A stretch of 64,000 nt of DNA. Source: Spirochaetia bacterium. Its GTDB lineage: Bacteria > Spirochaetota > Spirochaetia > CADAEX01. The notes below the pieces were generated by a model. The model did no database searches and was not told the DNA's origin. It was given only the letters and a program-made list of their open reading frames with translations. A program made the translations under genes and the position numbers. Shown in pieces: positions 12,426 through 32,675 of this stretch. The stretch spans positions 608,001-672,000 of the forward strand of contig OY759746.1 in NCBI GenBank assembly GCA_963662795.1. Direction: 5' to 3'. Every line of letters starts with the position of its first letter. The first letter of the stretch is position 1.

Positions 12426-12449
12426 TTTATGGGCCCACTTGAACTTGAA
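12426..12449. repeat. att-like direct repeat: duplicated 3' end of tRNA-Ile2
   Basis: TTTATGGGCCCACTTGAACTTGAA matches 32598-32621 TTTATGGGCCCACTTGGACTTGAA at 23/24 nt. Confidence 0.88.
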
Positions 12450-12661
12450 TTTAACCAGCCCTTTAATGTTTCTAATATACAGCTTCATAAAATGATCGCC
12501 ACGCTAAAAGCCAGTCTATCCTGTTGTTTCGATTACAGTATGATCGGGGAAAAAATAAATATTTTTTTATTTTCTTTATTTTCTTTATTTATTATTACCC
12601 TATCCCGCAAGGTATTTAATGCTACAATTCTTATATTTCCAAAATTAGTCGGGAGGTTGTG

Positions 12662-12808
12662 ATGTCATTAAAAACTAATATTCTATCAGGATTAAGTGCC
12701 GGTGCTTTAATTTATCCAGAAGTTATAAAAGGGAATCAAGTTCCGGCAGAATGGATGATAAAGGATACAAGGAATAGTAATAAAATTAAATTCTATTTTG
12801 CAATATAA
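12662..12808 (+). CDS. Putative 48-aa small protein or gene remnant
   Basis: GGGAGG RBS before GTG/ATG; MSLKTNILSGLSAGALIYPEVIKGNQVPAEWMIKDTRNSNKIKFYFAI; ends 26 nt before the HD-GYP gene. Confidence 0.35.
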   Translation: MSLKTNILSGLSAGALIYPEVIKGNQVPAEWMIKDTRNSNKIKFYFAI

Positions 12809-12834
12809 ACTGAACCTTAATCTGGAGAAGGGAC

Positions 12835-14004
12835 ATGAATAAATCAAATATTCTGATTTTAGATGATGAACCTCTAATTAGAGATCTTCTTGAAAATTAT
12901 CTGTCAAATGATTATGAAATATTTCAGGCAGATTCCGGATATAAAGCGCTTGAGATGCTTTCAAATATTAAAATAGATTTAGCTTTTGTTGATATAAATA
13001 TGCCGGCAATGAAAGGAACTGATTTTATTAAAAAAGCAAGAATAAATTATCCTGACATTGCCTATATCATTATTTCCGGTGAAAAAGATATAGATGCCGC
13101 GATTGAAGCTTTACATTCAGGAGTTTTTGACTTTATCAAAAAACCTTTTACTGATTTAAAATATTTAAAAAAAGTAATAAACAACTCATTGGAAAAAAGA
13201 AAGCTTATTACAGAAAACAAAAAATATAAAGAAAATCTCGAATCTCTTGTCGAAAAAAGAACAGCAGAACTGGAGATAAAAAATAAAGAGTTAATACATT
13301 CTCAAAACAGGATAGTAGGTATTTTATCCCGTGCAGCAGAGTATAAGGATTATGAAACTGGTCAGCATTTTATCAGGGTATCCCAATATTCAGGCATTAT
13401 TGCAGAAGCCTTGGGACTTGAGGAAAAAAAGATTGAGATTATCAGACAGGCAGCGCCAGTTCATGATATAGGGAAAATAGGGATCCCGGAAAAATTACTA
13501 TTAAAACAGGGAAAACTGACTGATGAAGAATATTCAGAAATGAAAAATCATTGTATATATGGTGAAGAAATATTAAATAGCCAGTCTCTGGATATCTTTA
13601 TACAAAATAAGCATTTTGATGTTGACAGCATGATATATACTGATGAATTGCTTAATACTGCTGCGGTTATCGCAAAATCGCATCATGAAAGATATAACGG
13701 AAGCGGATATCCGGATAGACTTAAAAAAAATGAAATACCAATTGAAGCAAGAATAGTTTCAGTTGCAGATGTATATGACGCGATAGGAACAGAAAGAGCA
13801 TATAAAAAAGCCTGGGATGAACAAAAATGTCAGGATTATATAAAAAATAACGCTGGAGAACTTTTTGACCCTGTTGTGGTTAATGCTTTTATATCAAATA
13901 TAAATAAAATAACAATGATAAAGCGTGTTTTTAAAGAAGAGCAAAACACATCAAATTCTTACGTGCTCCAAAAACTGGAAAAAGAAATGGCCTTAATTAA
14001 TTAG
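12835..14004 (+). CDS. Response regulator with HD-GYP c-di-GMP phosphodiesterase domain (RpfG-like)
   Basis: REC (LDDE, VDINMP) plus ETGQH, HDIGK, HHERYNGSGYP, VADVYDA. Confidence 0.93.
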   Translation: MNKSNILILDDEPLIRDLLENYLSNDYEIFQADSGYKALEMLSNIKIDLAFVDINMPAMKGTDFIKKARINYPDIAYIIISGEKDIDAAIEALHSGVFDFIKKPFTDLKYLKKVINNSLEKRKLITENKKYKENLESLVEKRTAELEIKNKELIHSQNRIVGILSRAAEYKDYETGQHFIRVSQYSGIIAEALGLEEKKIEIIRQAAPVHDIGKIGIPEKLLLKQGKLTDEEYSEMKNHCIYGEEILNSQSLDIFIQNKHFDVDSMIYTDELLNTAAVIAKSHHERYNGSGYPDRLKKNEIPIEARIVSVADVYDAIGTERAYKKAWDEQKCQDYIKNNAGELFDPVVVNAFISNINKITMIKRVFKEEQNTSNSYVLQKLEKEMALIN

Positions 14005-14113
14005 ATTAATTATCTTATACTGAGACATAAATCCCTGACGATATATATTTTATTATTATAGAATTTTCAAATACGTTCTGCAGGAAACCTTTAAATAAAA
14101 AACAGGGGAGAAA

Positions 14114-15434
14114 ATGAGTATTACACTGATGAATGAACGGGCATCTGAAATTAACTCAACAACAGAATGTTTATTACACAGGTAAGCTTTTTTATAGTAT
14201 TGGTTCTTATTCTTTCTATTTCAAGTGTCTTTTTTTTTAACAATGAGACATATATAACACATAAAGTTTTATCAGACTTTAATCATGAACTTGAGTTGAT
14301 TGCAAATCAGTTTAATTTCAAGCTCCTAGTGACCGAAGAACAAATCAAGGCAATTACAAGCCGATCAATGATAAAAAAAAGCTTCATGAATTTCACTTAA
14401 ACAATATTTCAATTGATGAAGTAAGGGCCTTTACACAAACAGAATACGCAGACGACACCTCTGTATATGCAAACCTGCTCCATGCAGTCAGATTTGATGC
14501 AAACAATAACATTATTGCATCCTACGGGAACTCCCCGATTAAAATTAAAAAGACAAATGACAAAGAGTTTTTTAATAATGAAAACGGATGTAATATTATT
14601 CTGAGAAATGAAATCATTCATAACAATGAACTAATCGGCTATGATAATGCAGCTTTTCTGCTATGCAATTTTAAAGATCACAAATCACTTTTACTTAAAA
14701 ATATTTCAATAATTAAAAATCCTGTTCAAAATATAAATCGAGTCAAATATTTTTACTCAGTTGCAATCGAAAAAACCAGATATTCATTATATGCAGAATT
14801 AAATCGGGATTAATTAAAATCAGAGTTATTGACTCAGTTAAAATAAATTTTGCTCCAGTCTGCTTTATTAATAATTATAGTCTCAGATTTTACAATTTTA
14901 AAATCAACATTTCACATAATACAGGACTTGAAACAGTCTTCACGGAAAGACCCATTGACCGGCTTGGCAAACAGAAAAGTTTTATGGGAAAAAGCAGCAT
15001 ATTTACTGGAACAATCAAAAAGATACAATTTTAAATTCGCATTACTATATATTGACGTTGACAGCTTCAAAACAATTAATGATACATACGGGCACAAGGC
15101 TGGTGATGATTTATTAATAATGATTGCTTCAAGATTATCAGAAAGTGTGCGCTCAACTGATGAAGTTATAAGAATTGGCGGAGATGAATTTGTTATAATA
15201 ATTTCAAGAATTAATGAGCATGGGGACGGCGGGAAAATAACAGAAAAAATTCTAAACAATTTTTTCAGGATTTTTAAGATCGGATTATATGATTTAAAAA
15301 TAGGGGCAAGCATAGGTATTTCTGTTTCAAAACCTGACAACAAATTAACAGTAGATAAATTATTGTCGGAAGCTGATCTTGCGATGTACGAGATTAAAAG
15401 ATCAGGTAAAAACAGCTTTAAATTTTCCAATTAA
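14114..15434 (+). pseudogene. Decayed membrane-bound sensor diguanylate cyclase; GGDEF domain still intact (14850-15434)
   Basis: RBS+ATG 14114, frameshift near 14165, frameshift in A8 run 14373-14380, in-frame TAA at 14811 and 14844, then DPLTGLANR...RSTD..RIGGDEF. Confidence 0.8.
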
Positions 15435-15439
15435 ATAAT

Positions 15440-16039
15440 TTATTTCTGATCATCATTAAATAATATAATTTTAGAATTATTTTCAATGTTTTCCTTCACA
15501 ATATTATCCATATATTTTTTTTCATAAAGCATTAAAAGATTTGTGCTTTTTATAATTTTTCTTACAAGAACTTTCCCTGTTTCGGGGAAAAAGTATATTT
15601 TACGTCCGTAATCTTCTCCTGTATCTCTTGCAATTACCGGAATATTTTCAGCTGCAAGAAATTTAAAAACAAACTCTGTATTTTTTAGCCCGATATGATA
15701 CTTCACGGAAGAATCCGTATAAAGGACATTGCCACCTCCAAAAACTTTAGCAATAAGCTCTCTTTTTTCAACACTTCTTTTCATCAGGCTGTTGATAAGG
15801 AGTTCCATTGCATATACTCCGTATCTCCCAGGGAAACTGTTTTCCAAGAAAACAATTTCAGATGATGCAGGAAGCATAAAATGATTAATACCTCCAATAT
15901 GTTTTTTATTGGAGTAAAGAACAACAGAAACGCACGACCCGAGTATTGTGCATATTACATCTTCCGCGCTTGTATAATACTCTCCCGGGTTAATAAGCAT
16001 AACTTCCCTGTCAATTTTAGAGTTGTAGATTTTTTTCAT
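15440..16039 (-). CDS. cheD: Chemoreceptor glutamine deamidase CheD
   Basis: TILGSCVSV, GGINHFMLP, AKVFGG, DTG...GRKI. Confidence 0.93.
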   Translation of the reverse strand: MKKIYNSKIDREVMLINPGEYYTSAEDVICTILGSCVSVVLYSNKKHIGGINHFMLPASSEIVFLENSFPGRYGVYAMELLINSLMKRSVEKRELIAKVFGGGNVLYTDSSVKYHIGLKNTEFVFKFLAAENIPVIARDTGEDYGRKIYFFPETGKVLVRKIIKSTNLLMLYEKKYMDNIVKENIENNSKIILFNDDQK

Positions 16040-16063
16040 ATTATTTGCTGCAGAGTGCAGACA

Positions 16064-16426
16064 TCAATCCAGTACTTTTTTTACAGTATTGAGCAACCCT
16101 TCATTTGTAAAAGGTTTTACAATCCATCCGGTAGCTCCTGCCGCCTTCCCCTTCTCAAGCATATCATTGGCGCTTTCTGTAGTAAGAACAAGGATGGGAA
16201 CATACCTGGTAGAATCCTGCGCTCTTAATTTTTTAATCAGATCTATTCCATTCATGTTCGGCATATTTATATCTGTTATAACAAGATCTATATTAACGCC
16301 TGATGATTTTGCAACCCCGTCAACCCCGTCAACGCCTTCCAGAACATTGAAACCGTTTTCCTTGAGAAGATAACTGAGACTCATTCTTACTACAGAAGAA
16401 TCATCAACAATCAGTATTGTTTTCAT
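16064..16426 (-). CDS. cheY: Chemotaxis response regulator CheY
   Basis: Single REC domain VDDS, TDINMP, LTTES, GATGWIVKPF inside che operon. Confidence 0.93.
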   Translation of the reverse strand: MKTILIVDDSSVVRMSLSYLLKENGFNVLEGVDGVDGVAKSSGVNIDLVITDINMPNMNGIDLIKKLRAQDSTRYVPILVLTTESANDMLEKGKAAGATGWIVKPFTNEGLLNTVKKVLD

Positions 16427-16575: not shown

Positions 16576-18312
16576 TCAGAACAACGTTATACTGCTTTCA
16601 GATACACTTTGCTCAAAATTTTCTTCATTCATAATTTTACCTTTATGGCGGAAAATTGTAAATTTATTTAAAAGATTATCAATTTCGCTGCTCTTAGCCA
16701 AAACAGCAAGTCTCTCCTTATCAATCATGTTGTATGATTGATTAATTTCTTCAAGACTCCGGATAATTTCGACTTTCATAATTTTCAGGGACTGTTTCGA
16801 TTCACCGATCAATCCGATATTTTTCTTTATGCTATCATAAATCATCACAAAGGGCCTGTTTATAAAGGTCAGTTTATTTAACAATTCTCTGAAAATATAT
16901 CCTGATTGCTCTGACAATTCAGCAAGTTTTTTAATTTCATTTTTGAAATTTTCAGTAAATAATTTATTATCATTGATAATTTTTCTCAATTCAGTGTCGG
17001 TTGCTTTATTCAGACTATTAAAATTATCATAGATACTTTCAATCTGTTTTGCAGATTCTGAAATAATATCAACTTCCCTTTGAATATCATTTATTGATGT
17101 TTCAACATTTGCTATTGCCGGGTGCCTTGCGATTTCAATCCTTGCCAGAACTATTGTATGATTGAATACCGAAACAGGATCGGTAAATGCAGCTATAAAA
17201 TCATGAAGCTGAGCAAATGCATTTAAAAGCAAATTTTTATGTTTTATTAACTCTGCCTCAAAACCGCATATATTTTCACTTTCCGAAACTACTCCTTCAA
17301 GCGTTGACGACATACCGTTAAGACATCCAATAAGGTTCACCCTTTCTGAATCTGCATTGAACTGCTCTTTTGCGAATCCTTCTTTCTTTTTTTGAAGTTC
17401 TTTAAGAAGAGTTACCATTTTATCAATGTTATCTTTTAAAACTACTTCATCAGTATCAAGCCGGTCAGCAACCTCATCCAGGACAAATACTGATAAATCA
17501 TATATCTTTTTACTTAGATAGGTTACTTCATCAGAACTTCTGTCAGTTTTCAGCTTTTCAAGCTCTTCAAGTGATAGAAGTATATGGTCCATGGACTGTC
17601 TTATAATATCCTGATTCTGAAGTCCCTCGAAAACAGAAAGAACAGCAGGTTTCATTTTCTGTGCTTCATTATAGACTGTCTCAATAAAATCAACAGCAGA
17701 ACTGATTGATTTCTTCAATGCAGAAAAATCACTTGTAAGTGCGCTATTAATAATTGTTGCTATTTTTTTCTGGAGAATCAGTATCCCTTCCGACTTATTT
17801 TTAAGCTTATCAAAATGTTCGTATACTATTCCGCGCTGAGTATTGAGATTCCCTGCCAGATAAAATGTATTTTTTGCGTTTTTCTGGAATCCGTCAGTGA
17901 TGCAGGTAAACCCTCCTCCATGCTTTCCGGCCTGTATTGCAACTACCATCGCATTTAGGGCAAGAAGCTCCATCTGTTCAGCTGATTTAATAATTTCCCC
18001 TATTGGGTGATGCATTTTATTGAGAACTTCAAAACTGTCAAAAATCCTGGACAGGACAGAAACGAACCCTTCAGTGTATTCTTTATGTTCTTTCTGAGCT
18101 TCTGTTACTTTTTTCTCCAGAAGAAATATGACACTGCTCAGACTTTTTTCAGAAGTATTTTCAAGATTATTCCTGAACTCATCTATAACTGTTTCTGATT
18201 CTGACAGGGAACTGTCTACCTCAATTTTTAATTTTTTCAGCAAATCTCCTATTTTGAGATAAGATTCTCCGAGTATATTCTGTGTTTCAATAAGAGATTC
18301 TATGTTTTTCAT
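16576..18312 (-). CDS. Soluble atypical chemoreceptor-like protein (BB0569-like)
   Basis: No TM; degenerate MCP hairpin LLALNAMVVAIQAGKHGGGF, LQNQDIIRQ motif, second degenerate tip LARIEIAR; between cheB and cheY. Confidence 0.72.
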   Translation of the reverse strand: MKNIESLIETQNILGESYLKIGDLLKKLKIEVDSSLSESETVIDEFRNNLENTSEKSLSSVIFLLEKKVTEAQKEHKEYTEGFVSVLSRIFDSFEVLNKMHHPIGEIIKSAEQMELLALNAMVVAIQAGKHGGGFTCITDGFQKNAKNTFYLAGNLNTQRGIVYEHFDKLKNKSEGILILQKKIATIINSALTSDFSALKKSISSAVDFIETVYNEAQKMKPAVLSVFEGLQNQDIIRQSMDHILLSLEELEKLKTDRSSDEVTYLSKKIYDLSVFVLDEVADRLDTDEVVLKDNIDKMVTLLKELQKKKEGFAKEQFNADSERVNLIGCLNGMSSTLEGVVSESENICGFEAELIKHKNLLLNAFAQLHDFIAAFTDPVSVFNHTIVLARIEIARHPAIANVETSINDIQREVDIISESAKQIESIYDNFNSLNKATDTELRKIINDNKLFTENFKNEIKKLAELSEQSGYIFRELLNKLTFINRPFVMIYDSIKKNIGLIGESKQSLKIMKVEIIRSLEEINQSYNMIDKERLAVLAKSSEIDNLLNKFTIFRHKGKIMNEENFEQSVSESSITLF

Positions 18313-18313
18313 A

Positions 18314-19375
18314 CTATCTTACCAGATCTATCACTCTAGGGGCTATTTTTAAAAGAGGAAGAACTTCATCTACAGCGCCTCTCTTTACTGCTTCCTTAGG
18401 CATACCGTAAACTACGCATGATTTTTCATCCTGTGCTATCGTATAAGCACCGTTGTCTTTCATCTCCTTCATCCCCCTGGCGCCGTCATCACCCATGCCC
18501 GTCATTATAATCCCTATAACATTCTCCCCGGCAAAGCGGGCAGCGGATCTGAAAAGGACATCAACACTCGGACGGTGTCTGCTTACAAGAGGGCCTGTCC
18601 TTACTTCAATAAAATATTCTGTTCCTGAAGTTTTTAAAAGCATATGATCATCTCCGGGAGCCACAAATACATCTCCCCTCTTCATTTTCATACCGTTTAC
18701 AGCTTCCTGGACATGCGCTTTTGAAAGAGTATTCAGCCTGTCTGCAAAAGCTTTGGTAAAATGCTTAGGCATATGCTGTACAATTAAAATTGGAGGCATG
18801 TTATCTGGAATCATCATAAGAAAATCCTTTAATGCCTCAGTTCCTCCAGTTGAAGCTCCGACTACAATAACCTTTTCCGTTGTTTTAATATTCCCCGCTT
18901 TTCCTGCAGGAAGTATTACATCTGCCGTAAGTTTAGAAGTTACGGAAATTGTTTTTTCAGGACTCTTTTTCCCGACTTTTGCATTTACAGCAGCCTTTAC
19001 AGTATCCTGGATCTTTGTTTTGGATTCTTCGATAAATTCTTTCGTTCCAAATTTGGGCTTTTCAATTATCTCGAGTGCTCCGTGATCAAGAGCAGATATC
19101 GCATTTATGGAATTATGCTGGGAAAAACTTGAGCAGATAATAACAGGAAGGGGTTTTTCAGCCATTATTTTCTTTAGATATGTAAGACCGTCCATCTGGG
19201 GCATCTGAAGATCAAGAATCAGAACATCAGGGCTGAAACTTGCAAATTTATTTTCTGCAAAGACAGGATTGGATGCAGAAAGAGTCTCAAATCCGTCTGC
19301 TTCAGGCAGAATAGCCTGCATTGTCTGCCGGACAAGTGCGGAGTCATCAACAATCATAACTTTAATTTTTTTCAT
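18314..19375 (-). CDS. cheB: Chemotaxis methylesterase CheB
   Basis: REC plus GASTGG, VQHMP, HRPSVDVLF, MTGMGDDG. Confidence 0.97.
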   Translation of the reverse strand: MKKIKVMIVDDSALVRQTMQAILPEADGFETLSASNPVFAENKFASFSPDVLILDLQMPQMDGLTYLKKIMAEKPLPVIICSSFSQHNSINAISALDHGALEIIEKPKFGTKEFIEESKTKIQDTVKAAVNAKVGKKSPEKTISVTSKLTADVILPAGKAGNIKTTEKVIVVGASTGGTEALKDFLMMIPDNMPPILIVQHMPKHFTKAFADRLNTLSKAHVQEAVNGMKMKRGDVFVAPGDDHMLLKTSGTEYFIEVRTGPLVSRHRPSVDVLFRSAARFAGENVIGIIMTGMGDDGARGMKEMKDNGAYTIAQDEKSCVVYGMPKEAVKRGAVDEVLPLLKIAPRVIDLVR

Positions 19376-19393: not shown

Positions 19394-20218
19394 CTATATT
19401 TTTTTAAAAACAGCAGGCGCACAGGATTTGAGATTAAAATTCATTCCAGCCATTGATTCGGAATGCCCAAGAAAGAGATGTCCTTCGGGACAGATTTTTT
19501 TTACCAGATTCCCGATAATATATTTCTGCTTTTCTCTCTCAAAATAAATCAAGACATTCCTGCAGAAAACAATATCAAAAGTCCCGGGAACATTATAATT
19601 ACTGCTCATCAGATTAAAGGTTCCAAGTTTAATATTATTTTTCAGAAAGGATTTAAAACGGTACTTTTTCTGTCCGGAATCTGCAGGTTCCAGATATCTG
19701 TCAATAAAGCCGGGAAAAGGGATGGTCTTTACATTGTCTTCTGAATATTCCCCGCTTTTCGCAATTTCAAGTACTTTTGTGGAAATATCTGTACCAATTA
19801 CAGAATACTTTAGTCTGTAATTATGCTTTTTTATATACTCTTCTATTTCCATGGCAATAGAATAAAGTTCCTCTCCGGAAGAACTTGCGCATGACCATAT
19901 TTTAAGCTCTTTTTTCCCTTTTTTCTCATATTCAGGGAGAAGGACCTCCCGGATATAATTAAAATGCCCTATTTCCCTGAAAAAGTCTGTTTTATTCGTT
20001 GCAATAGTGTTACAGAATTCAACAAGCTCTTTTTTTGAATTACTGTCACCCGTCTTCAGATAGTCGCAGTAATCCTGAAAAGAAGTAAGACTCAGAATCC
20101 TTAATCTTTTTGTAAGACGGGTTTCCATCAGCTGTTTCTTTTCAGGTGTCATTTTTATACCCATTATTTTCTTAACCAGTTCTGACAGGTATAAAAAGCT
20201 TTTATCATCAATATTCAT
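19394..20218 (-). CDS. cheR: Chemotaxis methyltransferase CheR
   Basis: TNKTDFFRE, IWSCASSSGEE.YS, GTDIS, FCRNVLIYF, LGHSES. Confidence 0.96.
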   Translation of the reverse strand: MNIDDKSFLYLSELVKKIMGIKMTPEKKQLMETRLTKRLRILSLTSFQDYCDYLKTGDSNSKKELVEFCNTIATNKTDFFREIGHFNYIREVLLPEYEKKGKKELKIWSCASSSGEELYSIAMEIEEYIKKHNYRLKYSVIGTDISTKVLEIAKSGEYSEDNVKTIPFPGFIDRYLEPADSGQKKYRFKSFLKNNIKLGTFNLMSSNYNVPGTFDIVFCRNVLIYFEREKQKYIIGNLVKKICPEGHLFLGHSESMAGMNFNLKSCAPAVFKKI

Positions 20219-22282: not shown

Positions 22283-22646
22283 TTTCAGCTCCTTTTTTAC
22301 CAAGAAAAGGAAATAAAACTTCTGAAATATTCCCTCTTTCAAGAAAACCGCAGTCATAAAGCCTGTTTGAAAACAACTCCTTTAGAGGACCCCTGAATGC
22401 AACCTGAAAATCATTTATCATGCATTCTTTATAAAAGGACAGAAGGATCTGAAGCGAGGAGAGATCTGCATTATTCACCTTCCTGAGATCCAGAGTGATT
22501 TTTGTGTACTCACTTTCAAATACAGATTTAAGTTTTCTGAGAAGTATCTCATTATTGGTAATTTTAAGTTCCGGCGGCAAAGTTAAAACAGCTCCTTTGG
22601 CTGTTTTAACAACTGCTTTACCAGAATCAGCTGTTTTCGCTATCAT
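22269..22646 (-). CDS. STAS domain protein (chemotaxis-cluster associated)
   Basis: ITLDLRKVNNADLSSLQILLS STAS motif; start ATG 22646 overlapping the end of cheW. Confidence 0.8.
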   Translation of the reverse strand: MIAKTADSGKAVVKTAKGAVLTLPPELKITNNEILLRKLKSVFESEYTKITLDLRKVNNADLSSLQILLSFYKECMINDFQVAFRGPLKELFSNRLYDCGFLERGNISEVLFPFLGKKGAEIGNS

Positions 22647-23145
22647 TTTTTTCTTCCTTTGATATATCATTTTTGACTTTCGGAATAAGAATAAGCTCCT
22701 CATTACTTAAAACTCTGTTTATATCAAGAATTATAAGAAACTTGTCATTATGCTGGCACATTCCCTGAATGAAATCAGTCTTGAGATTGAGTCCGATTTT
22801 TGGCGCCGGCTCTATCTGGGCGGATGATATATCAATAACTTCCTGCACAGAATCAACAAATGCGCCGATAAGCATAACATCATCATCTTTTGATTCGATT
22901 TCAAGTATTATTATGCTTGAGTCTATAGTCTGATCTTCCTCTTTTATTCCGAATTTTTTTCTCAGATCAATAACAGGAACAACACTTCCCCTGAGGTTGA
23001 GAACACCTTTCATAAAATCAGGCATTCCCGGCACCCGTGTTATCGGAACAATTTCAAGAACCTCTCTGACACTTAAAACAGACACTGCATAATTTTCACT
23101 ATGAAGTGTAAAAGTAAGATATTGTGACATTTCATTGTTAAGCAT
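22627..23145 (-). CDS. cheW: Chemotaxis coupling protein CheW
   Basis: QYLTFTL, ITRVP, GVLNLRGSVVPVIDLR, VDSVQEV. Confidence 0.96.
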   Translation of the reverse strand: MLNNEMSQYLTFTLHSENYAVSVLSVREVLEIVPITRVPGMPDFMKGVLNLRGSVVPVIDLRKKFGIKEEDQTIDSSIIILEIESKDDDVMLIGAFVDSVQEVIDISSAQIEPAPKIGLNLKTDFIQGMCQHNDKFLIILDINRVLSNEELILIPKVKNDISKEEKNDSENS

Positions 23146-23431
23146 ATTTTCATCTCCATTCAGTTTTATATAAAATACTTTGATTACAGAAAAGCAGGAT
23201 ATTACTGCCCCCGATAATTTATCAGGTCAAAAACTTTAAACTCCGTAAAATCTTTTTTACATCAAATATCAGTATAAAGTCCTTATATATCAATATAGTT
23301 AATTTTATCAAATCAAATCCATTTTTTTTATTTTTTAAACTTTTTTTATTTTCTAAATTAAACAGATCCTGTTTCTTTATGCTATTTTATATCTATCTTT
23401 CAGTGAAATATAAAAACATGTGAGGAAAATT

Positions 23432-25447
23432 ATGAAAAACATGAAACTTGCATTAAAAATGTTTATCGGTTTTGGTGCAACAATACTAATTGTGTCTCTT
23501 GTGGGTCTTATCGCTGTTATTAATATGCAGAGAATAAAAAACAGCACAGAAATTCTCAATAATGAATATCTGCCGGAAGTTGAGATTGCAAACAATCTGG
23601 AAAGAAATGCTCTCCAGACAATGTTCAACATGAGAGGATACAGCCTTAATTTCAGCGACAGCTACCTGTCAGCCGGAATGGATTTCTTTGGAAAGGTTAA
23701 AGAAAATTACAAGGAAGCAGTCGCTCTCTCAGAAAAGGCAGATAATCTGACAAAGCTTAAAGAACAGGCCTCTGTGATAAACGAAGAAATAAAAACCTAT
23801 GAAAAAGAAACTTCTACAACTGTTGAAACAATTAATAAGATAAAAGAACTCAGAACAGAACTTGATAATGAGGCCCCTTTATTCATGAAAAACTGTGAAG
23901 ATTATCTTGAAAGCCAGGATATAAAAATCAAAGAGGAAATAGATTCCGGTAAATCACGGAATGCTTTGAAGGAAAGGGTTTTCAAGATGAAACTCATGAA
24001 CGAGGTTATTGATCACATAAACAGTGTAAGGCTAAGCAACTTCAAGGCCCAGCTTCTGGTTGACTACAAGATAATGGAAGAAGGAATAAGCAATTTTGAA
24101 TATATCTATAAAACTCTTGCTGAAATCCGCAAAATAACTTTCCAGAAAGCAAATATTGAACAGCTGGATCGTATCGAAACATCCGGGAATACATACAAAA
24201 AAGGGATGGAGGAAATCCTGTCGCTTTATAAAAAACTCGCAGAATTAAACAAAGTCCGGAACGAAGCAGCCCTTAATGTTCTTGAAGGTTCAAAGAATCT
24301 TTCCGTTGCAGGAGTATCAAACACTCTGGGAAAAAACAGCTCAGCCCTCAGGCTGATAATATCCTCAACAGTGATTGTTGTAGCAGGCCTCCTTGCAGCT
24401 CTTGCAATATCAATAGTTATTGCAGTTTTTCTCACAAGAATGATAACTGTATCACTCAATAAAGGAGTTATTTTTGCCCAATCCATTGCGAAAGGAGATC
24501 TTACATCAGTAATTGATCTTGATCAGAAAGATGAAATAGGAGTTCTTGCTGCATCTCTAAATGAAATGTCTTCAAAACTCAAGGGAATAATGGAAAATAT
24601 TATTTCAAGTTCCAGAGATGTTGCGCAGGGGGGGGATGAGCTTAAAAATCTTGCAATGAATATATCCTCAGGAGCAAGCGAGCAGGCATCATCCAGCGAA
24701 GAGGTAGCCTCATCAATAGAGGAAATGGCTGCAAACATAAAGCAGAATACTGGAAATGCGTCCATGACAAGCGATATAGCTGACAAGGTTGCAAAAGATG
24801 CAAAAGTGAGCGGCGATGTTGTAAAGGAAGCAGTTGAATCAATTAAAAAAATATCGGAAAAGATAGAAGTAATTGACAATATATCAAGACAGACAAACAT
24901 GCTTGCCCTTAATGCAGCAATTGAAGCTGCACGGGCAGGAGAACACGGGAAAGGCTTTGCGGTAGTCGCATCGGAAGTAAGAAAGCTTGCCGAAAACAGC
25001 CAGAAAGCGGCAATTGAAATAATGGAACTCTCATCCCACACTGTAAATAAAGCAGTTACTGCAGGGAAAATGCTGGAAGAGCTTGTTCCTGAGATTATCA
25101 AGACATCAGATCTTATAAAAGAAATCAGCAGCGCAAGTTCTGAACAGGAAAAAGGTGTGGATCAGATGAATATAGCCATCAATCAGCTTAATGAAGTAGT
25201 CCAGACAAACGCATCGTCGAGCGAAGAAATGGCCGCAACTTCTGAAGAACTTAATGCAAAATCCGATTTTATGCTTCAGACAGTGAGCTTTTTCAAAATA
25301 GGAAAAAATACCGGCAGCAGAAAAAATCAGAAAAGCACAGGGAAAAAAGAAGATACCAATATAAGAGACAAAAAATCCGAGAAAAAAGAGGACTATGATA
25401 CTGGAAACGACTTCCCCGACCAGGAAGGCGGGTTTAAGGAATTTTAG
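23432..25447 (+). CDS. Methyl-accepting chemotaxis protein with helical periplasmic sensor, HAMP and C-terminal pentapeptide
   Basis: Two TMs, [46 protein letters not shown], ends GFKEF; start ATG 23432 after GAGG. Confidence 0.95.
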
Positions 25448-25491: not shown

Positions 25492-25673
25492 AAATAATCA
25501 TAGTCTTTAAAATGCCTGGCAATGCAGCAGAAGAATATTATTCAAAGGCTGTGCAATCAGGCAGACCAAAAATCCAGAATCTGAAAAGACGTATTACCAT
25601 ATACGCAAAACCTGATAATTGTACATAAATGAATCGGTTTTCATCTGCATCTTACAGGGAGGAAAAAGGCAGA

Positions 25674-26075
25674 ATGATAGCAACAGATAATAAAGCTGAT
25701 AAAAAAAGTAAAATATTGATAATGGATGATGATGATTTTATACTTGATATTTTGACAGAAATGCTTGATTTGCTGGGACACACAGCTGTAGCAGCAACAG
25801 AAGGGGATGAAGCACTGAGGATTATAGAATCATCATATAAAAAAGGTGAAATATTTGCTGCCTGCATACTGGATCTTGCAATACCGGGAGGGAAAGGAGG
25901 ACTTGATATAGTCAAGGAAATCAGAAGTATCTCGGAAAAAACAGAAATTATTGCTTTAAGCGGATATACAGAAAATCCTGTAATTGAATTCCCTGAAAAA
26001 TATGGATTCAGCGGCAGCCTGAGGAAACCTTTCAAACTTGATGAATTTTCTGAAATTATCAGAAGGTATGTCTAA
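25674..26075 (+). CDS. Stand-alone response regulator receiver domain
   Basis: ILIMDDD, LDLAIPGG, ALSGY, KPF; resembles the C-terminal receiver of hybrid kinases; GGAGG upstream. Confidence 0.8.
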   Translation: MIATDNKADKKSKILIMDDDDFILDILTEMLDLLGHTAVAATEGDEALRIIESSYKKGEIFAACILDLAIPGGKGGLDIVKEIRSISEKTEIIALSGYTENPVIEFPEKYGFSGSLRKPFKLDEFSEIIRRYV

Positions 26076-26169: not shown

Positions 26170-26862
26170 ATGATTAAGATACTTATAGTTGAAGATGATC
26201 CCATGGTAATTGAAATAACAAAATCCTTTATTGATAAAATATCCGGATACACTATCTCCGGGGAGTGCAGAGGCGGGATATCTGCACTTGAATTTTTAAA
26301 AAAAAATGATGTAGATCTTATCATGGCAGATATATCCATGCCGAATATGGACGGGTTAACCTTTGTTAAGGAACTCCGGAAAGAACAGAATAATTCAGAT
26401 ATAATATTTGTTACAGCATTAAATGACTCAGAAACAATTAAAACCGCATTAAAATACGGAGCGGTAGACTATATTGTAAAACCATATGATTTTAATCGCT
26501 TTAAAAAAACAATGGAATCCTACAAAGACCGGTTTAATACATTAAACCGGAAAAACAGTATAGAGCAGAGTGATATCGACAGGATAACCAACATAGAAAG
26601 TACTAATAATACAACATCAGAACTTCCCAAGGGAATTCATTCATCAACACTCAAAAAAGTCCTTAAGACTTTTGATGATTCTGATCCTGATATGGAACTT
26701 ACCATAGAATACTTTTCAAGTATTTTAAAAATGAGTGTAGTTTCACTGCGCCATTATATGGACTATCTATGTTCTGAAGGTATAATTGAGTACGATACAA
26801 AATACGGAACAGTAGGAAGACCAAAATATCTCTATCGTAGAACCAATAAACCAGCTGAATAG
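26170..26862 (+). CDS. CitB/DctR-family response regulator
   Basis: VEDDPMV, DY.VKPY.F.R, LPKGI...TL, YGTVGRP..Y C-terminal motif. Confidence 0.88.
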   Translation: MIKILIVEDDPMVIEITKSFIDKISGYTISGECRGGISALEFLKKNDVDLIMADISMPNMDGLTFVKELRKEQNNSDIIFVTALNDSETIKTALKYGAVDYIVKPYDFNRFKKTMESYKDRFNTLNRKNSIEQSDIDRITNIESTNNTTSELPKGIHSSTLKKVLKTFDDSDPDMELTIEYFSSILKMSVVSLRHYMDYLCSEGIIEYDTKYGTVGRPKYLYRRTNKPAE

Positions 26863-26868
26863 GAAAAA

Positions 26869-29055
26869 TTACAACTGTTTATTAATTTTTTCAATTATCT
26901 TGTCAAATTTAATAATAGAAAAAGGCTTCTGCAGTGTGATACAGCCATCATTTATCATTTCCGCTATATCGTTTTCATTAGTGCTATAACCAGATGACAG
27001 GATAACCTTTTGATCCGGTTTTATTGATTTTATTTTATCATAAACTTCTTTTCCGCTTATATCAGGCATCATATAGTCAAGAACAACTAAATCAATGTTA
27101 CTATATCTGTTACTGAAATATCCCAGACCGTCCAATCCGTTGTTGACCAATTTAACAATATGGCCGGAATCTTCAAGATGTTCCTTCAGCATAATTGAAT
27201 ACTCAATATTATCATCAATAATCAAAACAGATAACTGATTTTGAAAGTGCCGGCTGGATTCGTTTTTATTATCGTTAATAGTGATTTCTGATTTGCTTAT
27301 CCATGGCAAATATATAATAAATTCAGTCCCAATATTGACTTCTGATTTTACTTCAATGGCTCCATCATGGCTTTTTATTATACCGAATACTGAAGCAAGA
27401 CCCATTCCCGTTCCTTTGCCTACTTTTTTTGTAGTAAAAAATGGTTCAAAGATCCTGCCAAGAGTTTCAGCGGTCATTCCTGAACCATTATCAGTTATTC
27501 TTAATTTAACATAATTCCCGGGACCTACCTCAAAACCATGCTGAAGTTCTTTTCTGGTTTCAATATTTATCAATCCAATCTCAAAAAATATTTCACCTGT
27601 TCCATGTATTGCGTCTTTTGAGTTCAGGGCAATATTAAGTACAGCATTCTGGATATTTGTATAATCTCCGTTTATATTTGCATCCAGAAGATTAAGCTCT
27701 TTTTTAATTTTAACCCGTTTATCAAGGGAATGATTTAAAATATCTATTACATCCTCAACAACAGGAACAAGATTAATAACTTGTTTTTTATAATTCCCTA
27801 TCCTGGCAAAAGACAGAAGCTGCTTTGTCAGAACAGAGCTGTTTTGAACAGATTTTATTATTTTTCCAATATAATTTTTAAGCTGCTGATCAGTAATTTT
27901 ACTGCTTAAAAGTTCTGAATACCCTAAAATTGAGGATAACTGATTGTTGAAATCATGCGCAATTCCTCCGGAAAGCTGACCTATCGACTCCATCTTCTGA
28001 CTTTGAAACATTTTCCTTTCAAATAATTCTTTTTCCTCTTCCTGTTTCTTCAACTCTGTAATATCCTGAACAATGCCTATGGCTTTACAAATTTTTCCAT
28101 TATCATCACATATATGTACACACTTTTCAAAAACAAATCTTGTCTCTCCTGTTGTCTGGTTTATTATCCGATGCCGAAGCTCATAAGATTCACGATTGTT
28201 TTCCAGGGATTGTTCGTATTTATCATTTACTGATTTTATATCTTCCGGATGTACCATTCTTAAGAAGAATTCATAGTTTATTTCCCTTGATTTATCATCA
28301 ATACCGAAAATTCTGTAAGTTTCTTCTGACCAAATCAGTTTATTGTCAGCTAAATTCAATTCCCATGATCCTGTATGGGATATTTTCTGTGTTTCAGTTA
28401 ATAAAAAAGTCTTATCTTTAATTTCATTTAGTGTTCTAATAAGATCCTCTTTGTTTTTCTTGTAATAAATAAAAATAAAACTGAACGCTATTGCAAATTC
28501 AAATAATGCGCCAAGAAAAAATCCGATCGGGGCAAACCATACTGATGTTCCTAAAAACGGATAATTCATTTTATGTATGCCCCATAAAATGAATGTTACA
28601 CCAGCTATTTTATGCTCAGTATTATTTATAGTTTTATCTTTAAATAATATAACCCCTGTTTCGATATATATAATTCCCATAAACAAAAAAGTAGGAAGCG
28701 TAATATAAAGATATGAGAAATGCAGAACTACACCCGAAATTATCCATATCTGTAGAATAATATAAATAATACCCCATTTTTTTACTGTTTTTTTGTCAAG
28801 AAATAATAAAGTCCCGTATAACAAAAAAATTCCGCTTAACAATGAGGCTGATTGCTCTATGCTTATTAAAAAATGTGTTGGGGAATATTTCTGTATTAAA
28901 AATGAAAACATAAAGCGGAAAGCATATAGCCACCAGCTGATGGCCCATATTTTTAAATAGTCTTTTCTTTCATTTAAATAAAGAAACGAGTAAACAAATG
29001 AAATTGCCAGAGTCCCTATCAATGTTGATACGATTGCCGGTAATATCCAATTCAT
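26869..29055 (-). CDS. Multi-TM PAS hybrid histidine kinase
   Basis: ~7 N-terminal TMs, PAS_3 (GSWE..L, VHPED), GGIAHDFNN, GTGMGL, receiver LDYMMP. Confidence 0.92.
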   Translation of the reverse strand: MNWILPAIVSTLIGTLAISFVYSFLYLNERKDYLKIWAISWWLYAFRFMFSFLIQKYSPTHFLISIEQSASLLSGIFLLYGTLLFLDKKTVKKWGIIYIILQIWIISGVVLHFSYLYITLPTFLFMGIIYIETGVILFKDKTINNTEHKIAGVTFILWGIHKMNYPFLGTSVWFAPIGFFLGALFEFAIAFSFIFIYYKKNKEDLIRTLNEIKDKTFLLTETQKISHTGSWELNLADNKLIWSEETYRIFGIDDKSREINYEFFLRMVHPEDIKSVNDKYEQSLENNRESYELRHRIINQTTGETRFVFEKCVHICDDNGKICKAIGIVQDITELKKQEEEKELFERKMFQSQKMESIGQLSGGIAHDFNNQLSSILGYSELLSSKITDQQLKNYIGKIIKSVQNSSVLTKQLLSFARIGNYKKQVINLVPVVEDVIDILNHSLDKRVKIKKELNLLDANINGDYTNIQNAVLNIALNSKDAIHGTGEIFFEIGLINIETRKELQHGFEVGPGNYVKLRITDNGSGMTAETLGRIFEPFFTTKKVGKGTGMGLASVFGIIKSHDGAIEVKSEVNIGTEFIIYLPWISKSEITINDNKNESSRHFQNQLSVLIIDDNIEYSIMLKEHLEDSGHIVKLVNNGLDGLGYFSNRYSNIDLVVLDYMMPDISGKEVYDKIKSIKPDQKVILSSGYSTNENDIAEMINDGCITLQKPFSIIKFDKIIEKINKQL

Positions 29056-29228
29056 TATAATCCTTAATCTTTTTATGTATGCACTCTGGAATTATCTTTG
29101 AGCTGCAAAACATAAATCCCCAGATATGTTCAAATTGTTTTATGATGGAAACTTTTTTTTCAATAATATGTTAATGTATATTGCCGGTATTTGCTACAAA
29201 AAAATTAAAATGACTAAAGCAGATATCT

Positions 29229-29258
29229 AAAAAAAACACCCTAATAGAAGGGTGTTTA
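29229..29258 (-). terminator. Rho-independent terminator of the small TPR-like gene
   Basis: AAACACCCT..AGGGTGTTT stem followed by a T-run on the minus strand. Confidence 0.7.
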
Positions 29259-29261
29259 TAT

Positions 29262-29390
29262 TTACATGATTTTACCTGTTTTCTCAGATAAATCCCTTGC
29301 TTTCCTGAAAAGCTGTTCAGCTGTACTGTAATCACCTGCCTGCATCATTTCCATTCCTCTCTCAAAAAGTTCAGTTATGTTTTTTTCCAT
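29262..29390 (-). CDS. 42-aa small protein, single TPR-like helical hairpin (not in ORF track)
   Basis: MEKNITELFERGMEMMQAGDYSTAEQLFRKARDLSEKTGKIM; AGAGGAG RBS upstream, terminator immediately downstream. Confidence 0.7.
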   Translation of the reverse strand: MEKNITELFERGMEMMQAGDYSTAEQLFRKARDLSEKTGKIM

Positions 29391-29520
29391 TATTAGTAGC
29401 TCCTCTTATAGTCTATCTTGTATATCGGGAAAAAAAATAAATATTAAAGGTTTTTAGCAGTTTTTTTATAATATATTTCATAATTTCAAATGCTGTTCAT
29501 TGCTGGGATGTAAAAAAATA

Positions 29521-32256
29521 CTATTCGAATTCAAAAGCAGGACTCAGTATTTCATTAATTTTATAAGATAATTTTTCAATAGTAAAAGGCTTCTGTATGA
29601 AGATATTTGTTGAATAAATATTCTGTCCACTAATACTAAAATCATTGGAATAACCGGATATTAAAAGGAACTTGATATTTTTATATCTCGCCGACACAAT
29701 TTCATAAAGACCAATACCATTCAGTTCCGGCATTATTACATCAGAAATTATTAAATCAAAGTTTGAATCTTTATCAAGGAGCTCCAATGCCTTTTTCCCG
29801 TTTGAAACTTTTTCAATTCTAAATCCTTTTTCAGTCAGTATTTCTCCCAGCATTTCGAGTATTTCTTCATCATCTTCAACAATCAGAATCCTTTTTGAAT
29901 CGGAATTGTCTTGTACTCTATTATTAATCTGGACATCTTTCATCCTTTCCTGAAATTCCGGAAAAGCTATTATAAACTCCGTTCCATTTCCGGAAGATGA
30001 TTTAACATCAATCTCCCCGTTATGCTGCTGTACAATACCATAAACAATGGATAAACCAAGTCCTGTCCCATTGACACCTTTTGTGGTAACAAATGGCTCG
30101 AAAATATTGGAAAAAACTGATTCGGGGATTCCCGTACCGGAATCCTTTACAGACAAAATAATTTTGCTGTTCCTGGAATAAGTTGCAATTATGATTTCAC
30201 CGCCGTCAGACATTGAATCCTGGGCATTTACACATAAATTCATAATGATTTGTTCAATCTCTCCCTGATCGCCGTTTATATAACCGATACTGTTATCAAG
30301 GTTTAATTTTATCGTAATATTTTCATATATTGTTTTTCCAAGTATTTTAATGAAATCCTCGATAATTTGATTCAGGTTTAATGATACATATCTTAAAGGC
30401 TGCTTTCTGCTGAATGCAAGAAGCTTGGTTACAAGTGAAGAGGCTCTTATTCCAGCTCCATATATTTTTTCAACATGAAGTATTTCTTTTTCATTCATAT
30501 TTTCACTGTATTTCAGAAGTTCACTATATCCGAGAATAGGGGTCAGTAAATTATTCAAATCATGTGCAATACCTCCGGCAAGTTTGCCGATTGATTCCAT
30601 CTTTCTGGCCTGCAGTATTTCTTCTTCCAGGTTTCTCTGATTAGAATAATCAGCAAATAAAACAATCATTTTACCATCAGGCAATTTTGAAACACGAATT
30701 TCCAAATACAAGGTAATTCTATGGTTTTGATAATCAGTTCTAGGGATAAAATTTGGTTTTCCGGTCTTGTAAACACTTTGAATTACTTTCAGAATTCCAT
30801 AATCTTCCACACCAAAAAACACTTCAGTAATTATTTTCCCTCTTATATTTTCTATATCACAATCAATAATTTTCTGCCCGGCAGGATTCATATCAAAAAT
30901 AATAAAATTTTCTCCACCATTTACAGCTTCACATAATGCAACGCCTGTGGAAATATTCTCAAACATATTTCTAAAATACGATTCCCTCTCTTTTAAAATA
31001 TTTTCCGCTTTTTTTTTCTCAGTAATATCATTAAGAATACAATGGGTTTGTTTAAATGAACCATCAGGATTATGAGCAATCCGGCCTTCAAAAGCAATAT
31101 AACAATCTTCTCCGCTTTTTTTCCGCATATAAAATTCGCTGTGGATTTTACCTTTTCTTATAAAAAGAGGAAATCTTTCTTTAAAGGCACTAACAAAATC
31201 AGGATGTAAAAAATCGCCAAACCATTTGCCAAGCACTTCTTCCTTTTGATAACCAAGAGTATCAAGCCAGGCCTGATTAACTTCTATAAAACAGCCATTT
31301 TCATCCAAAGACTGATATCCCAAGGGGGCTTTATCAAAAAACATTTGAAAACGTTCTTCGCTCTCTCTCAATGATTTGATTGCTTTATTCCTGTCTGTCA
31401 AATCATGTATTAAACATATTATACTGTTTTCAGGAGATGTGATATTTTTACTTACAGATATTTCAACATCAATTTCTTTGTCATACCTGTTTTTTATTAC
31501 TGACAAAAAAGACAGGAAACCAGTAGAAATTACTTTTTCAATATTATTTTTTATATGATTTATTAAGTTTTCAGAAAATATCTGAAATATTTTATAATTG
31601 TTTTCTGATAGATCAAAATTAAAACATTCATCAGCCGCATGATTCATAAAAAGGATATCACCTGTTTTGCTAATAACAAATATTGAATCCCTTGTATTAT
31701 TAATAATAGTTTCATAATTATATACAAGACTGATATTCTGATCCCTGTTTTTCAAGTTAAAAAGAGCATAACTTAAATCATCCACCATCTCTGTAAACAG
31801 AGCCTGCTCTTCACTATCTTCTGCATACTTTTTCGGAACAGAAACAGTAATCCATCCCAATAATTTATTTTTCCAGATTAACGGACAAGAGAAACCCGCA
31901 CATTCATTATGATTATTAAAAAAGGGGCAATATTTACATTTTCTGACCGGATCTTTTATTACAGATAATGAATGTGTATTTAATGCCTGCTCAGCGCATA
32001 CAGGGAAAATACTTTTTTCCAGGAGAATTTTCATTTCATTAAAACGGGAACCAAACCCCGCATGATAGTAAGGCTGCACAGGCATTCCATTTTCAAGGAG
32101 AACTATCCATGCATTATTGTACTCTCTTGAATCAATAAGTAAGGTGCATATACCGTCACACAATTCGGTTACATCATCAGCATGAGTTATTAATCTATTT
32201 ACAGTTCTAATTGCTTTTAATACTTCCAATTGGTGTGAATAATATTCAGAACCCAC
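29521..32256 (-). CDS. Cytoplasmic GAF-PAS-PAS-PAS hybrid histidine kinase
   Basis: GAF with Cys motif (PVCA...CKYCP), PAS repeats, GGIAHDLNN, GTGLGLS, receiver SDVIMP. Confidence 0.92.
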   Translation of the reverse strand: MGSEYYSHQLEVLKAIRTVNRLITHADDVTELCDGICTLLIDSREYNNAWIVLLENGMPVQPYYHAGFGSRFNEMKILLEKSIFPVCAEQALNTHSLSVIKDPVRKCKYCPFFNNHNECAGFSCPLIWKNKLLGWITVSVPKKYAEDSEEQALFTEMVDDLSYALFNLKNRDQNISLVYNYETIINNTRDSIFVISKTGDILFMNHAADECFNFDLSENNYKIFQIFSENLINHIKNNIEKVISTGFLSFLSVIKNRYDKEIDVEISVSKNITSPENSIICLIHDLTDRNKAIKSLRESEERFQMFFDKAPLGYQSLDENGCFIEVNQAWLDTLGYQKEEVLGKWFGDFLHPDFVSAFKERFPLFIRKGKIHSEFYMRKKSGEDCYIAFEGRIAHNPDGSFKQTHCILNDITEKKKAENILKERESYFRNMFENISTGVALCEAVNGGENFIIFDMNPAGQKIIDCDIENIRGKIITEVFFGVEDYGILKVIQSVYKTGKPNFIPRTDYQNHRITLYLEIRVSKLPDGKMIVLFADYSNQRNLEEEILQARKMESIGKLAGGIAHDLNNLLTPILGYSELLKYSENMNEKEILHVEKIYGAGIRASSLVTKLLAFSRKQPLRYVSLNLNQIIEDFIKILGKTIYENITIKLNLDNSIGYINGDQGEIEQIIMNLCVNAQDSMSDGGEIIIATYSRNSKIILSVKDSGTGIPESVFSNIFEPFVTTKGVNGTGLGLSIVYGIVQQHNGEIDVKSSSGNGTEFIIAFPEFQERMKDVQINNRVQDNSDSKRILIVEDDEEILEMLGEILTEKGFRIEKVSNGKKALELLDKDSNFDLIISDVIMPELNGIGLYEIVSARYKNIKFLLISGYSNDFSISGQNIYSTNIFIQKPFTIEKLSYKINEILSPAFEFE

Positions 32257-32570
32257 TTTATTCTCCGCATATATTTTTCCCTGTCAGTATAAATCAGTAT
32301 AAATCAGGATCAAGACTTAAACAAATATATTTTGGTTTATAAACAGATAATAATCCTATATTCTAATGATTACTTAAGATAATCATTTCAGCATTATCTG
32401 TCATTCAATGATGTGATCCTAAAGCAGCCTTATATACAGGACAGCGGTCCGGCAAGCTTAATATCGGTTTACAGTTCTGTCTTCCAGGCTGCTAAAACAC
32501 AAACCGATTAATTAATTATAAATTGATATTGGAAGGACTGCTCAATCTGATATTTTAAAGTATTAAATAT

Positions 32571-32600
32571 AAAAAACACCTTCTTTAGAAGGTGTTTTTT
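32571..32600 (-). terminator. Terminator downstream of tRNA
   Basis: AAAAAACACCTTC-TTTA-GAAGGTGTTTTTT perfect hairpin. Confidence 0.85.
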
Positions 32601-32601
32601 A

Positions 32602-32675
32602 TGGGCCCACTTGGACTTGAACCAAGGACCACTCGATTATGAGTCGAGGGCTCTAACCAACTGAGCTATAGGCCC
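32602..32675 (-). tRNA. tRNA-Ile2 (anticodon CAT, lysidine type); CCA not encoded
   Basis: GGGCCTATAGCTCAGTTGGTTAGAGCCCTCGACTCATAATCGAGTGGTCCTTGGTTCAAGTCCAAGTGGGCCCA folds as a cloverleaf; ACTCATAATC anticodon arm resembles ileX rather than Met tRNAs. Confidence 0.93.

Follow-up and report, generated by a model that had tools for sequence, protein, structure and literature searches.

An integrase-less island with chemosensory cargo at a tRNA gene in a Spirochaetia bacterium, a probable relic of site-specific integration

Classical genomic islands at tRNA genes contain a tyrosine integrase gene, usually located next to the tRNA, and the stretch of the tRNA gene from the T-loop to the 3' end is the usual zone of crossover. 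Accessory chemosensory (Che) gene clusters also move horizontally. The cis-mobilizable elements (CIMEs) that have been described come mainly from streptococci. By the definition in the review PMC5704250, CIMEs are elements that have lost their integration and transfer genes and have kept both attachment sites, attL and attR. Here, we describe an island of 20,148 bp, located between two direct repeats (positions 12452–32599) at the 3' end of a tRNA gene in a Spirochaetia bacterium (GenBank assembly GCA_963662795.1). The window, i.e., the whole stretch of DNA that was analyzed, is 64,000 nucleotides long and corresponds to G000:C1:608001-672000, where G000 is the genome studied, a single contig (OY759746.1) of 3,931,449 bp. 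Positions are those of the window unless a genome is named. We assign a probability of roughly 0.7 to the reading that the island is an integrase-less, CIME-like relic of site-specific integration, which carries a horizontally acquired module of chemosensory, two-component, and cyclic di-GMP (c-di-GMP) genes.

Like a classical tRNA-gene island, this locus is flanked by an intact tRNA on one side and by a displaced copy of its 3' end on the other, and the repeat covers the tRNA from the T-loop to the acceptor end. The corresponding site is empty in a close relative, and the GC content of the island is somewhat lower than that of the host. On the other hand, there is no integrase gene beside the tRNA, where the first island gene is found 314 nt away from the tRNA-side hairpin. 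The features that define the borders are listed below.

12400–12422, both strands: bidirectional terminator, which ends the pyridine-nucleotide-disulphide oxidoreductase gene of the left flank
12428–12451: left direct repeat, the displaced copy of the tRNA 3' end (21/24)
32571–32600, minus strand: island-borne hairpin followed by a T-run, the tRNA-proximal arm of the island and now the terminator of the tRNA
32600–32623: right direct repeat, the 3' end of the functional tRNA and 2 nt beyond it
32602–32675, minus strand: tRNA with anticodon CAT, the integration target (ARAGORN and Rfam)

This tRNA is the only one identified by ARAGORN in the window, and Rfam scores it at 70.6 bits. The CAT anticodon is found in three of the 46 tRNAs of the genome. 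One of these looks like an initiator tRNA, one has a different body, and the one in the window has an Ile-like body. By elimination among the three, and with general identity rules, we take the tRNA to be tRNA-Ile2, which is its most likely identity and the name it was given in a preliminary description of the window.

The direct repeat extends from the T-loop through 2 nt past the end of the tRNA. The tRNA 3' end points into the island, and the partial copy is oriented in the same way, as in a pair of attL and attR sites. The two repeats are referred to as putative attL and attR, with a perfect core of 14 nt. The preliminary description had reported a 23/24 match at 12426–12449; the repeat does exist, and the recount gives 21/24 at 12428–12451 and 32600–32623. 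No pair of this quality, with three mismatches, was expected from 100 shuffles of the window. A search of the whole 3,931,449-bp genome for the 24-mer at up to three mismatches returned these two copies only, and the reversed-pattern control returned zero, so the repeat is unique, as the first account of the island had presupposed. In the left repeat, the outer 14 nt are perfect and all three mismatches are on the side that faces the island, which is where the arm of attP would contribute sequence.

Each border has a hairpin of its own. The terminator at 12400–12422 is called on both strands and has a stem of 9 bp with six GC pairs, which folds at −15.4 and −16.8 kcal/mol. The tRNA-side hairpin (about 32571–32600) folds at −17.8 kcal/mol (z = −8.9); it was not flagged by the pattern-based terminator scan and was seen by folding. 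The proposal of two terminators, a strong bidirectional one on the left and a separate one supplied by the island beside the tRNA, thus agrees with these results, in the second case by folding.

The state of the same site has been compared in related genomes. The genome studied (G000), its closest congener (G001), and a more distant congener (G002) belong to genus g1, while G005, G008, and G011 belong to the sister genus g4; g2 and g3 are further genera. In G001, the left flank (window 8746–12449, 88% identity) and the right flank (window 32595–34374, 90% identity) are found on one contig, where they overlap by 27 nt (left flank up to L013 8139, right flank from 8113). The junction consists of the terminator, TTTATTTA, and then the tRNA, with no scar. 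G001 carries the 12400 terminator at the position where G000 has the island-borne terminator of the tRNA.

When metagenome contigs were scanned with 57 nt of the tRNA as the query, three of them matched (L023, L024, and L025). The first and the last of these have the same terminator-tRNA junction as G001, and L024 has an unrelated context. An empty site with the terminator joined straight to the tRNA, which had been predicted in the preliminary description, is thus present in G001, L023, and L025. The right flanks of these three are 98.5–99.5% identical to each other and each is 93.8% identical to that of G000; they therefore form one clade and represent one event. Sequencing runs that contain the left flank comprise three of an organism A (word share 1.00) and three of a close relative, organism B (0.53).

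The flanks of G002 are about 79.6–82% identical to those of G000 and 74–81% identical to those of G001, which gives the tree ((G000,G001),G002). At the same site, G002 has a filling of ~1.5 kb, in which an intact GGDEF gene is the only gene; after it come a hairpin and an arm that are homologous to those on the tRNA side in G000. The GGDEF gene encodes 432 aa and is the orthologue of a pseudogene in the island, with which it shares 81.7% nucleotide identity, a divergence similar to that of the flanks. The genomes of both congeners are ~1 Mb smaller than G000.

In the sister genus, G005 has a copy of the end of its own tRNA 183 nt downstream (20/24, with the first 20 nt perfect). An older terminator is located outside this copy and a new hairpin beside the tRNA. 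Since the same architecture of repeat and terminators is found here, the site has been used more than once in the family. The repeat (G005:C1:2703849-2704055, or local 63849-64055 of L015-L018) encloses ~158 nt that fold at −55 kcal/mol on one strand. This insert has no match in G000, including the island arms, or in G011, and there is no PF00589 match in G005 at 2.64–2.715 Mb. The insert would be a tiny element, or else what is left of a deleted island. In G011, what looks like a fragment of an IS-type transposase is predicted behind the tRNA. The tRNA itself is 93–100% identical across the family, and at the eight tRNA loci that were fetched from g2 and g3 there is neither the gene cluster nor a repeat at the tRNA.

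No gene for a recombinase has been found in the window. A six-frame search of the genome with the tyrosine recombinase family PF00589 gave nine matches, none of which falls within 608001–672000. The small open reading frames (ORFs) at the island ends, in which excisionase and recombination genes were sought, have no Pfam match at E ≤ 0.1. All island ORFs of at least 90 aa encode signalling proteins and the small ones are unmatched, leaving no recombinase, excisionase, or transfer gene in the island. Its non-coding gaps are at most 465 nt long, so there is no room for a sizeable gene remnant. These PF00589 and Pfam scans uphold the description of the island as integrase-less. A search for a tyrosine integrase elsewhere in the genome that targets tRNA-Ile2 had also been suggested; nothing links the three intact non-Xer genes or the one tRNA-adjacent match described below to that tRNA.

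G000 does encode three intact non-Xer tyrosine recombinases (near 1.847, 1.882, and 2.051 Mb) and two Xer-like ones (near 3.08 Mb). There is no tRNA within 160 kb of the three intact non-Xer genes. Two of the recombinase domains, at G000:C1:1881794-1882276 and 2050815-2051297, are 92% identical to each other, which suggests that they may belong to a mobile element repeated in the genome. The sole PF00589 match adjacent to a tRNA (G000:C1:3633229-3633723) was considered as a tRNA-linked integrase and rejected; this recombinase domain is 639 nt from tRNA-Val(TAC) and has one internal TGA. The locus may be another, decaying tRNA-linked island. No displaced 3' copy of tRNA-Val(TAC), or of any other tRNA of G000 apart from the one in the window, was found within 150 kb.

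The genes of the island are listed below. The domain calls are Pfam matches to ORFs and cover the island ORFs of at least 90 aa and the small ORFs at the ends. REC denotes a response-regulator receiver domain and MCP a methyl-accepting chemotaxis protein; identities are at the amino acid level.

12835–14004, plus strand: REC-HD-GYP response regulator, putative c-di-GMP phosphodiesterase (Response_reg 5e-24, HD_5 8e-29); 74% identical to the G005 gene of the homologous cluster
14167–15434, plus strand: GGDEF diguanylate-cyclase pseudogene (Pfam GGDEF 7e-44)
15440–16039, minus strand: CheD (Pfam CheD 1.7e-30)
16064–16426, minus strand: CheY-like single-domain response regulator (Response_reg 1.2e-26); 88% identical to G005
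16576–18312, minus strand: MCP-like protein, 578 aa (MCPsignal 32.1 bits, under the Pfam cut-off of 34.6)
18314–19375, minus strand: CheB methylesterase (REC and CheB_methylest, Pfam)
19394–20218, minus strand: CheR methyltransferase (Pfam)
20237–22357, minus strand: CheA histidine kinase (Hpt, H-kinase_dim, HATPase_c, CheW; Pfam)
22269–22703, minus strand: STAS-domain protein within the che operon (Pfam STAS 2.2e-07)
22627–23145, minus strand: CheW (Pfam CheW 8e-38)
23420–25447, plus strand: transmembrane MCP (4HB-like sensor, HAMP, MCP signalling domain), divergent from the che operon; 76.8% identical to G005
25629–26075, plus strand: orphan receiver-only response regulator (Pfam)
26170–26862, plus strand: REC-HTH regulator with a weak DpiA-like HTH (Response_reg 1.2e-29; HTH_64 21 bits, below the cut-off)
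26869–29055, minus strand: HHK728, hybrid histidine kinase (PAS, HisKA, HATPase_c, REC); 69.7% identical to the G005 gene
29262–29390, minus strand: 42-aa ORF that weakly matches TPR; a terminator hairpin comes after it (29234–29257)
29521–32256, minus strand: HHK911, hybrid histidine kinase (PAS, HisKA, HATPase_c, REC; Pfam)

On the minus strand, the order of the che operon is CheW-STAS-CheA-CheR-CheB-MCP-like-CheY-CheD. The Che set is complete (CheA, CheW, receptor, CheY, CheR, CheB, and CheD) and scores above the Pfam cut-offs except for the 578-aa MCP-like protein. The position of this protein is conserved in G005, G008, and G011, and in G000 it has neither a paralogue nor a second tblastn match. 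Since the ORF start of CheA overlaps the STAS gene, the real start of CheA may be located further downstream. The preliminary description had stated that every recognizable island gene serves signal transduction. Pfam supports this, with the correction that the GGDEF gene it had listed is a pseudogene. Three-frame translation shows one frameshift and two in-frame stops in the N-terminal transmembrane/sensor part, and a C-terminal ORF of 194 aa (14850–15434) is still open.

Further che clusters are found in G000 near 2.26 and 3.60 Mb. The closest paralogues of the island genes in G000 are at most 43% identical, and the island has therefore not arisen by local duplication. Judged by domain content, the cargo may constitute an additional chemosensory circuit, in which the kinase would feed CheY, CheB, the REC-HD-GYP protein, and c-di-GMP turnover. 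HHK911 has no orthologue in any relative searched; its best match in G005 is 36% identical, and its best paralogue in G000 is 39% identical over 387 aa. The 42-aa ORF at 29262–29390 may not be a real gene. No internal repeat copies or borders of accretion were found within the island, only short AT-rich chance families.

A pair of similar hairpin terminators, at 29228–29257 and 32568–32597, has the form AAAAACACC...GGTGTTT. The two are 3.3 kb apart and bracket the HHK911 gene. Beside the inner terminator (29234–29257) there is no repeat resembling the direct repeats or the tRNA. The similarity of the hairpins may be due to chance, or it may be a trace of HHK911 joining the island.

The origin of the che genes has been addressed by comparison with genus g4. 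All seven Che proteins show a higher identity between G000 and G005 than between G005 and G011, including CheA (84.6% vs 77.1%), CheW (89.5% vs 77.9%), and CheR (78.8% vs 69.6%). The C-terminal half of the MCP shows the same order (79.8% vs 77.4%). By comparison, all 11 ORFs beside the tRNA show the reverse, with G005 closer to G011 than to G000 (75.9% vs 54.7% for Hsp33). These 11 ORFs comprise eight syntenic, non-overlapping genes, two probable shadow ORFs, and one ORF that is not syntenic in G000. A maximum-likelihood tree of CheA and CheR (12 taxa, 993 columns, rooted) has the topology (G011,(G000,(G005,G008))) with support of 96/98, and a monophyletic g4 is rejected by the approximately unbiased (AU) test (p = 0.023). 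The che genes of the island thus nest within g4, which agrees with the horizontal acquisition that had been claimed for the island, and the che core is probably derived from the g4 lineage.

The distribution of the operon is narrow. A CheA search of 201 genomes of the class gave 71 matches at E ≤ 1e-100; within the family, only G005 matched among the nine genomes sampled, with no match at this threshold in five g2 and three g3 genomes. The best match outside the family is 54% identical. The che operon has no nucleotide match in G001 or G002.

The neighborhood in G005 contains the che operon, the MCP, the REC protein, an inverted homologue of HHK728, the HD-GYP protein, and the REC-HTH protein, at 52–89% amino acid identity to G000. 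The HHK728 homologue is inverted relative to the island. There is also synteny with G005 on the right side of the tRNA, for Hsp33 and the genes of window 50357–57502. The che operon of G011 is located elsewhere in its genome. Read as a circle, the island has the order che-MCP-REC-(REC-HTH)-HHK728-(HHK911)-att-HD-GYP-(GGDEF), while the order of the G005 cluster is che-MCP-REC-HHK728-HD-GYP-REC-HTH. The two orders are roughly collinear, which would fit a circular intermediate.

The GC content of the island is 34.1%, compared to 39.7% for the genome, which places it at the 10th percentile among 20-kb windows. For tetranucleotide distance, the island is at the 89th percentile. The preliminary description had looked to composition for a sign of foreign origin; a shift is present, though these percentiles make it a mild one. 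The GC content at third codon positions (GC3) is 0.23–0.36 in the island and 0.45 in two flanking genes. The homologous cluster of G005, with GC3 values of 0.26–0.40 vs 0.37–0.44 in its neighbors, fits its surroundings better.

Taken together, the empty site, the unique repeat, the lack of a recombinase, and the nested che genes favor the interpretation as an island. In the proposed mechanism, the island (12452–32599) would have entered the 3' end of the CAT tRNA, probably tRNA-Ile2, by site-specific recombination of the tyrosine integrase type. In this event, ~24 nt at the end of the tRNA would have been duplicated, and the replacement terminator of the tRNA would have come with the island. 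Later, the island would have been left with no recombinase, excisionase, or transfer genes, as a cargo-only, CIME-like relic. Its che core would have arrived horizontally from the lineage of the sister genus g4. Site-specific integration at the tRNA end is proposed because of the anatomy of the borders, because the empty site has no scar, and because the architecture recurs in G002 and G005, and we infer that an integrase made the junctions.

The time of entry can be proposed only tentatively. Because G002 shares the GGDEF gene and the tRNA-side arm, the insertion may predate the radiation of the genus and may later have been precisely lost in the G001 clade. The flank-like divergence of these shared parts also argues for an old insertion. 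A single entry before the split of G000 and G002, followed by precise excision in the G001 clade and trimming in G002, is the course to which we give somewhat less than even odds. Separate entries of related elements into G000 and G002 are possible, at about one chance in three. The perfect outer 14 nt of the repeat argue for a later insertion, as does the gain of other blocks nearby in G000.

Two blocks and a smaller difference in the flanks of the island are described here in their own right. The first, at 34375–45434 (11 kb), is absent in both congeners, which have ~1.1–1.35 kb instead, and is also absent at this position in G005. The genes in it code for an aminotransferase, an amino-acid ABC transporter (ATPase, two permeases, and binding protein), an enzyme of the DHDPS family, a PdxA-family dehydrogenase, an Fe-alcohol dehydrogenase, a four-carbon-acid-sugar-kinase-like protein (SBD_N/NBD_C), and a PrpR-type sigma-54 activator. 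With this metabolic content, it resembles a further lineage-specific block, located across the tRNA from the island. The second, at window 3949–8745 (~4.8 kb, including most of a 770-aa ORF at 5693–8005), has no counterpart on the G001 contig, although both of its sides align, and is present in G002. Also, an azaaromatic (yjdF) riboswitch is found at 32853–32958 on the plus strand (Rfam 59 bits vs a gathering score of 45), and a DUF2992 gene (ORF 32979–33362) follows directly downstream. The region containing both (32743–33407) has no match in G002.

Several observations weigh against site-specific integration of a horizontally acquired module. The three empty-site sequences come from one clade only. 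The left repeat of G002 is not significant, as its best local alignment is 7 nt long and is equalled in 8.6% of 2000 shuffles. Neither a recombinase nor its remnant has been found, and the integrase step is read from the anatomy of the junctions alone. The che tree is rooted via a long branch, with the nearest outgroup 54% identical and G011 on the longest ingroup branch, and long-branch attraction could mimic the nesting of G000 in g4. The clade subjected to the AU test was named after the distances had been seen. Also, the G011 operon, which is located elsewhere in its genome, could be a divergent xenologue. The compositional shift is modest. Finally, HHK911 and the GGDEF gene have no counterpart in g4, which makes the island a mosaic.

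The alternative that survives best, though it is unlikely, assumes an ancestral neighborhood. Here, the cluster would have been linked to the tRNA since before the split of g1 and g4 and would have been deleted in G001 and G002, with their smaller genomes; the deletion in G001 would have run between two short repeats and would have left a clean site by chance. The che-MCP-REC block of G005 is located 28–54 kb from this tRNA, and its side and orientation are those seen in G000, which would fit an old vertical linkage as well. In G011, homologues of the MCP and REC genes are ~23 kb from the tRNA. The nucleotide identity of the che operon between G000 and G005 (75%) is in the range of the core genes (72–76%), the compositional shift is mild, and other blocks of the window are missing in G001 and G002 as well. 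On the other hand, for all seven Che proteins it is G000, and not G011, that is closer to G005 and G008, while core genes show the opposite, and the AU test rejects the monophyly of g4. The searches of g2 and g3 genomes did not find the cluster, which under this scenario would call for several independent losses. An ancestral neighborhood also leaves unexplained why a copy of the tRNA end is located exactly at the far border and why there is a separate terminator on the tRNA side.

It is similarly doubtful that the island is still mobile, as a non-autonomous element whose attL and attR are recognized by a recombinase encoded elsewhere, on a helper element or in the host chromosome, in the way that a CIME is mobilized by an incoming integrative and conjugative element (ICE). 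Within the genus, one site has three fillings (20 kb, 1.5 kb, and empty), and g4 adds an insert of ~160 nt; none of these encodes a recombinase. The outer 14 nt of the repeat are perfectly kept, and G000 has its three intact non-Xer tyrosine recombinase genes. However, none of these three genes has a tRNA within 160 kb, and no other displaced tRNA copy was found within 150 kb. The GGDEF pseudogene suggests a long and quiet residence, and the insert of G005 has no sequence in common with the arms of the G000 island.

A broader version of such mobility is a long shot. The 3' end of tRNA-Ile2 would be a docking site for recombinase-less cassettes, each with its own terminator, which would be inserted and removed by a recombinase of a helper element or of the host, encoded elsewhere, and would shuttle sensory pathways between genera. 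If this were true, the 20-kb, 1.5-kb, 0.16-kb, and empty states would be snapshots of active exchange and not relics. The weakest alternative, an illegitimate or homology-facilitated insertion anchored in the conserved tRNA with an incidental 21/24 repeat, could draw on the absence of a recombinase and on a tRNA similar enough across the family (93–100%) to serve as a homology anchor, but it is very improbable given a repeat that is unique in the genome, not expected by chance, and placed exactly at the insertion border, an empty site made up of flank, repeat, and tRNA with no scar, and the recurrence of the architecture in G005.

Under the reading that we prefer, that of an integrase-less relic, a whole accessory chemosensory circuit (kinase, adaptation enzymes, receptors, regulators, and c-di-GMP enzymes) can cross genera as a unit and arrive at a tRNA gene. 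A single case displays not only the border of the insertion and the empty site but also a trimmed version and the lineage that was probably the donor. The island is also a candidate for lineage-specific sensory behavior. Otherwise, it represents an ordinary kind of genome plasticity.

The island resembles a CIME in that a direct repeat of the tRNA 3' end marks its borders, it carries cargo only, with no integrase, excisionase, relaxase, or transfer genes, and it corresponds to sites that are empty or otherwise filled in relatives. It differs from a CIME in that neither a trace of a parent ICE or integrative and mobilizable element (IME) nor a tandem partner element is present; a search of 41 relatives with the island DNA found no intact parent. 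Its host is a spirochaete and its cargo a complete sensory pathway. With it, the list of cargo-only islands at tRNA genes gains a member from the spirochaetes. Like other mobile Che clusters, it has a complete CheA/W/R/B/Y/D set with receptors, which is additional to other che clusters of the genome and has a phylogeny incongruent with the species tree. Unlike them, the vehicle and the insertion site are visible here, as an att-bounded island and an empty site in a relative, and the che genes travel with HD-GYP, GGDEF, and hybrid-kinase genes. The island is thus a further example of the known integrase-less islands at tRNA sites and not a new mechanism.

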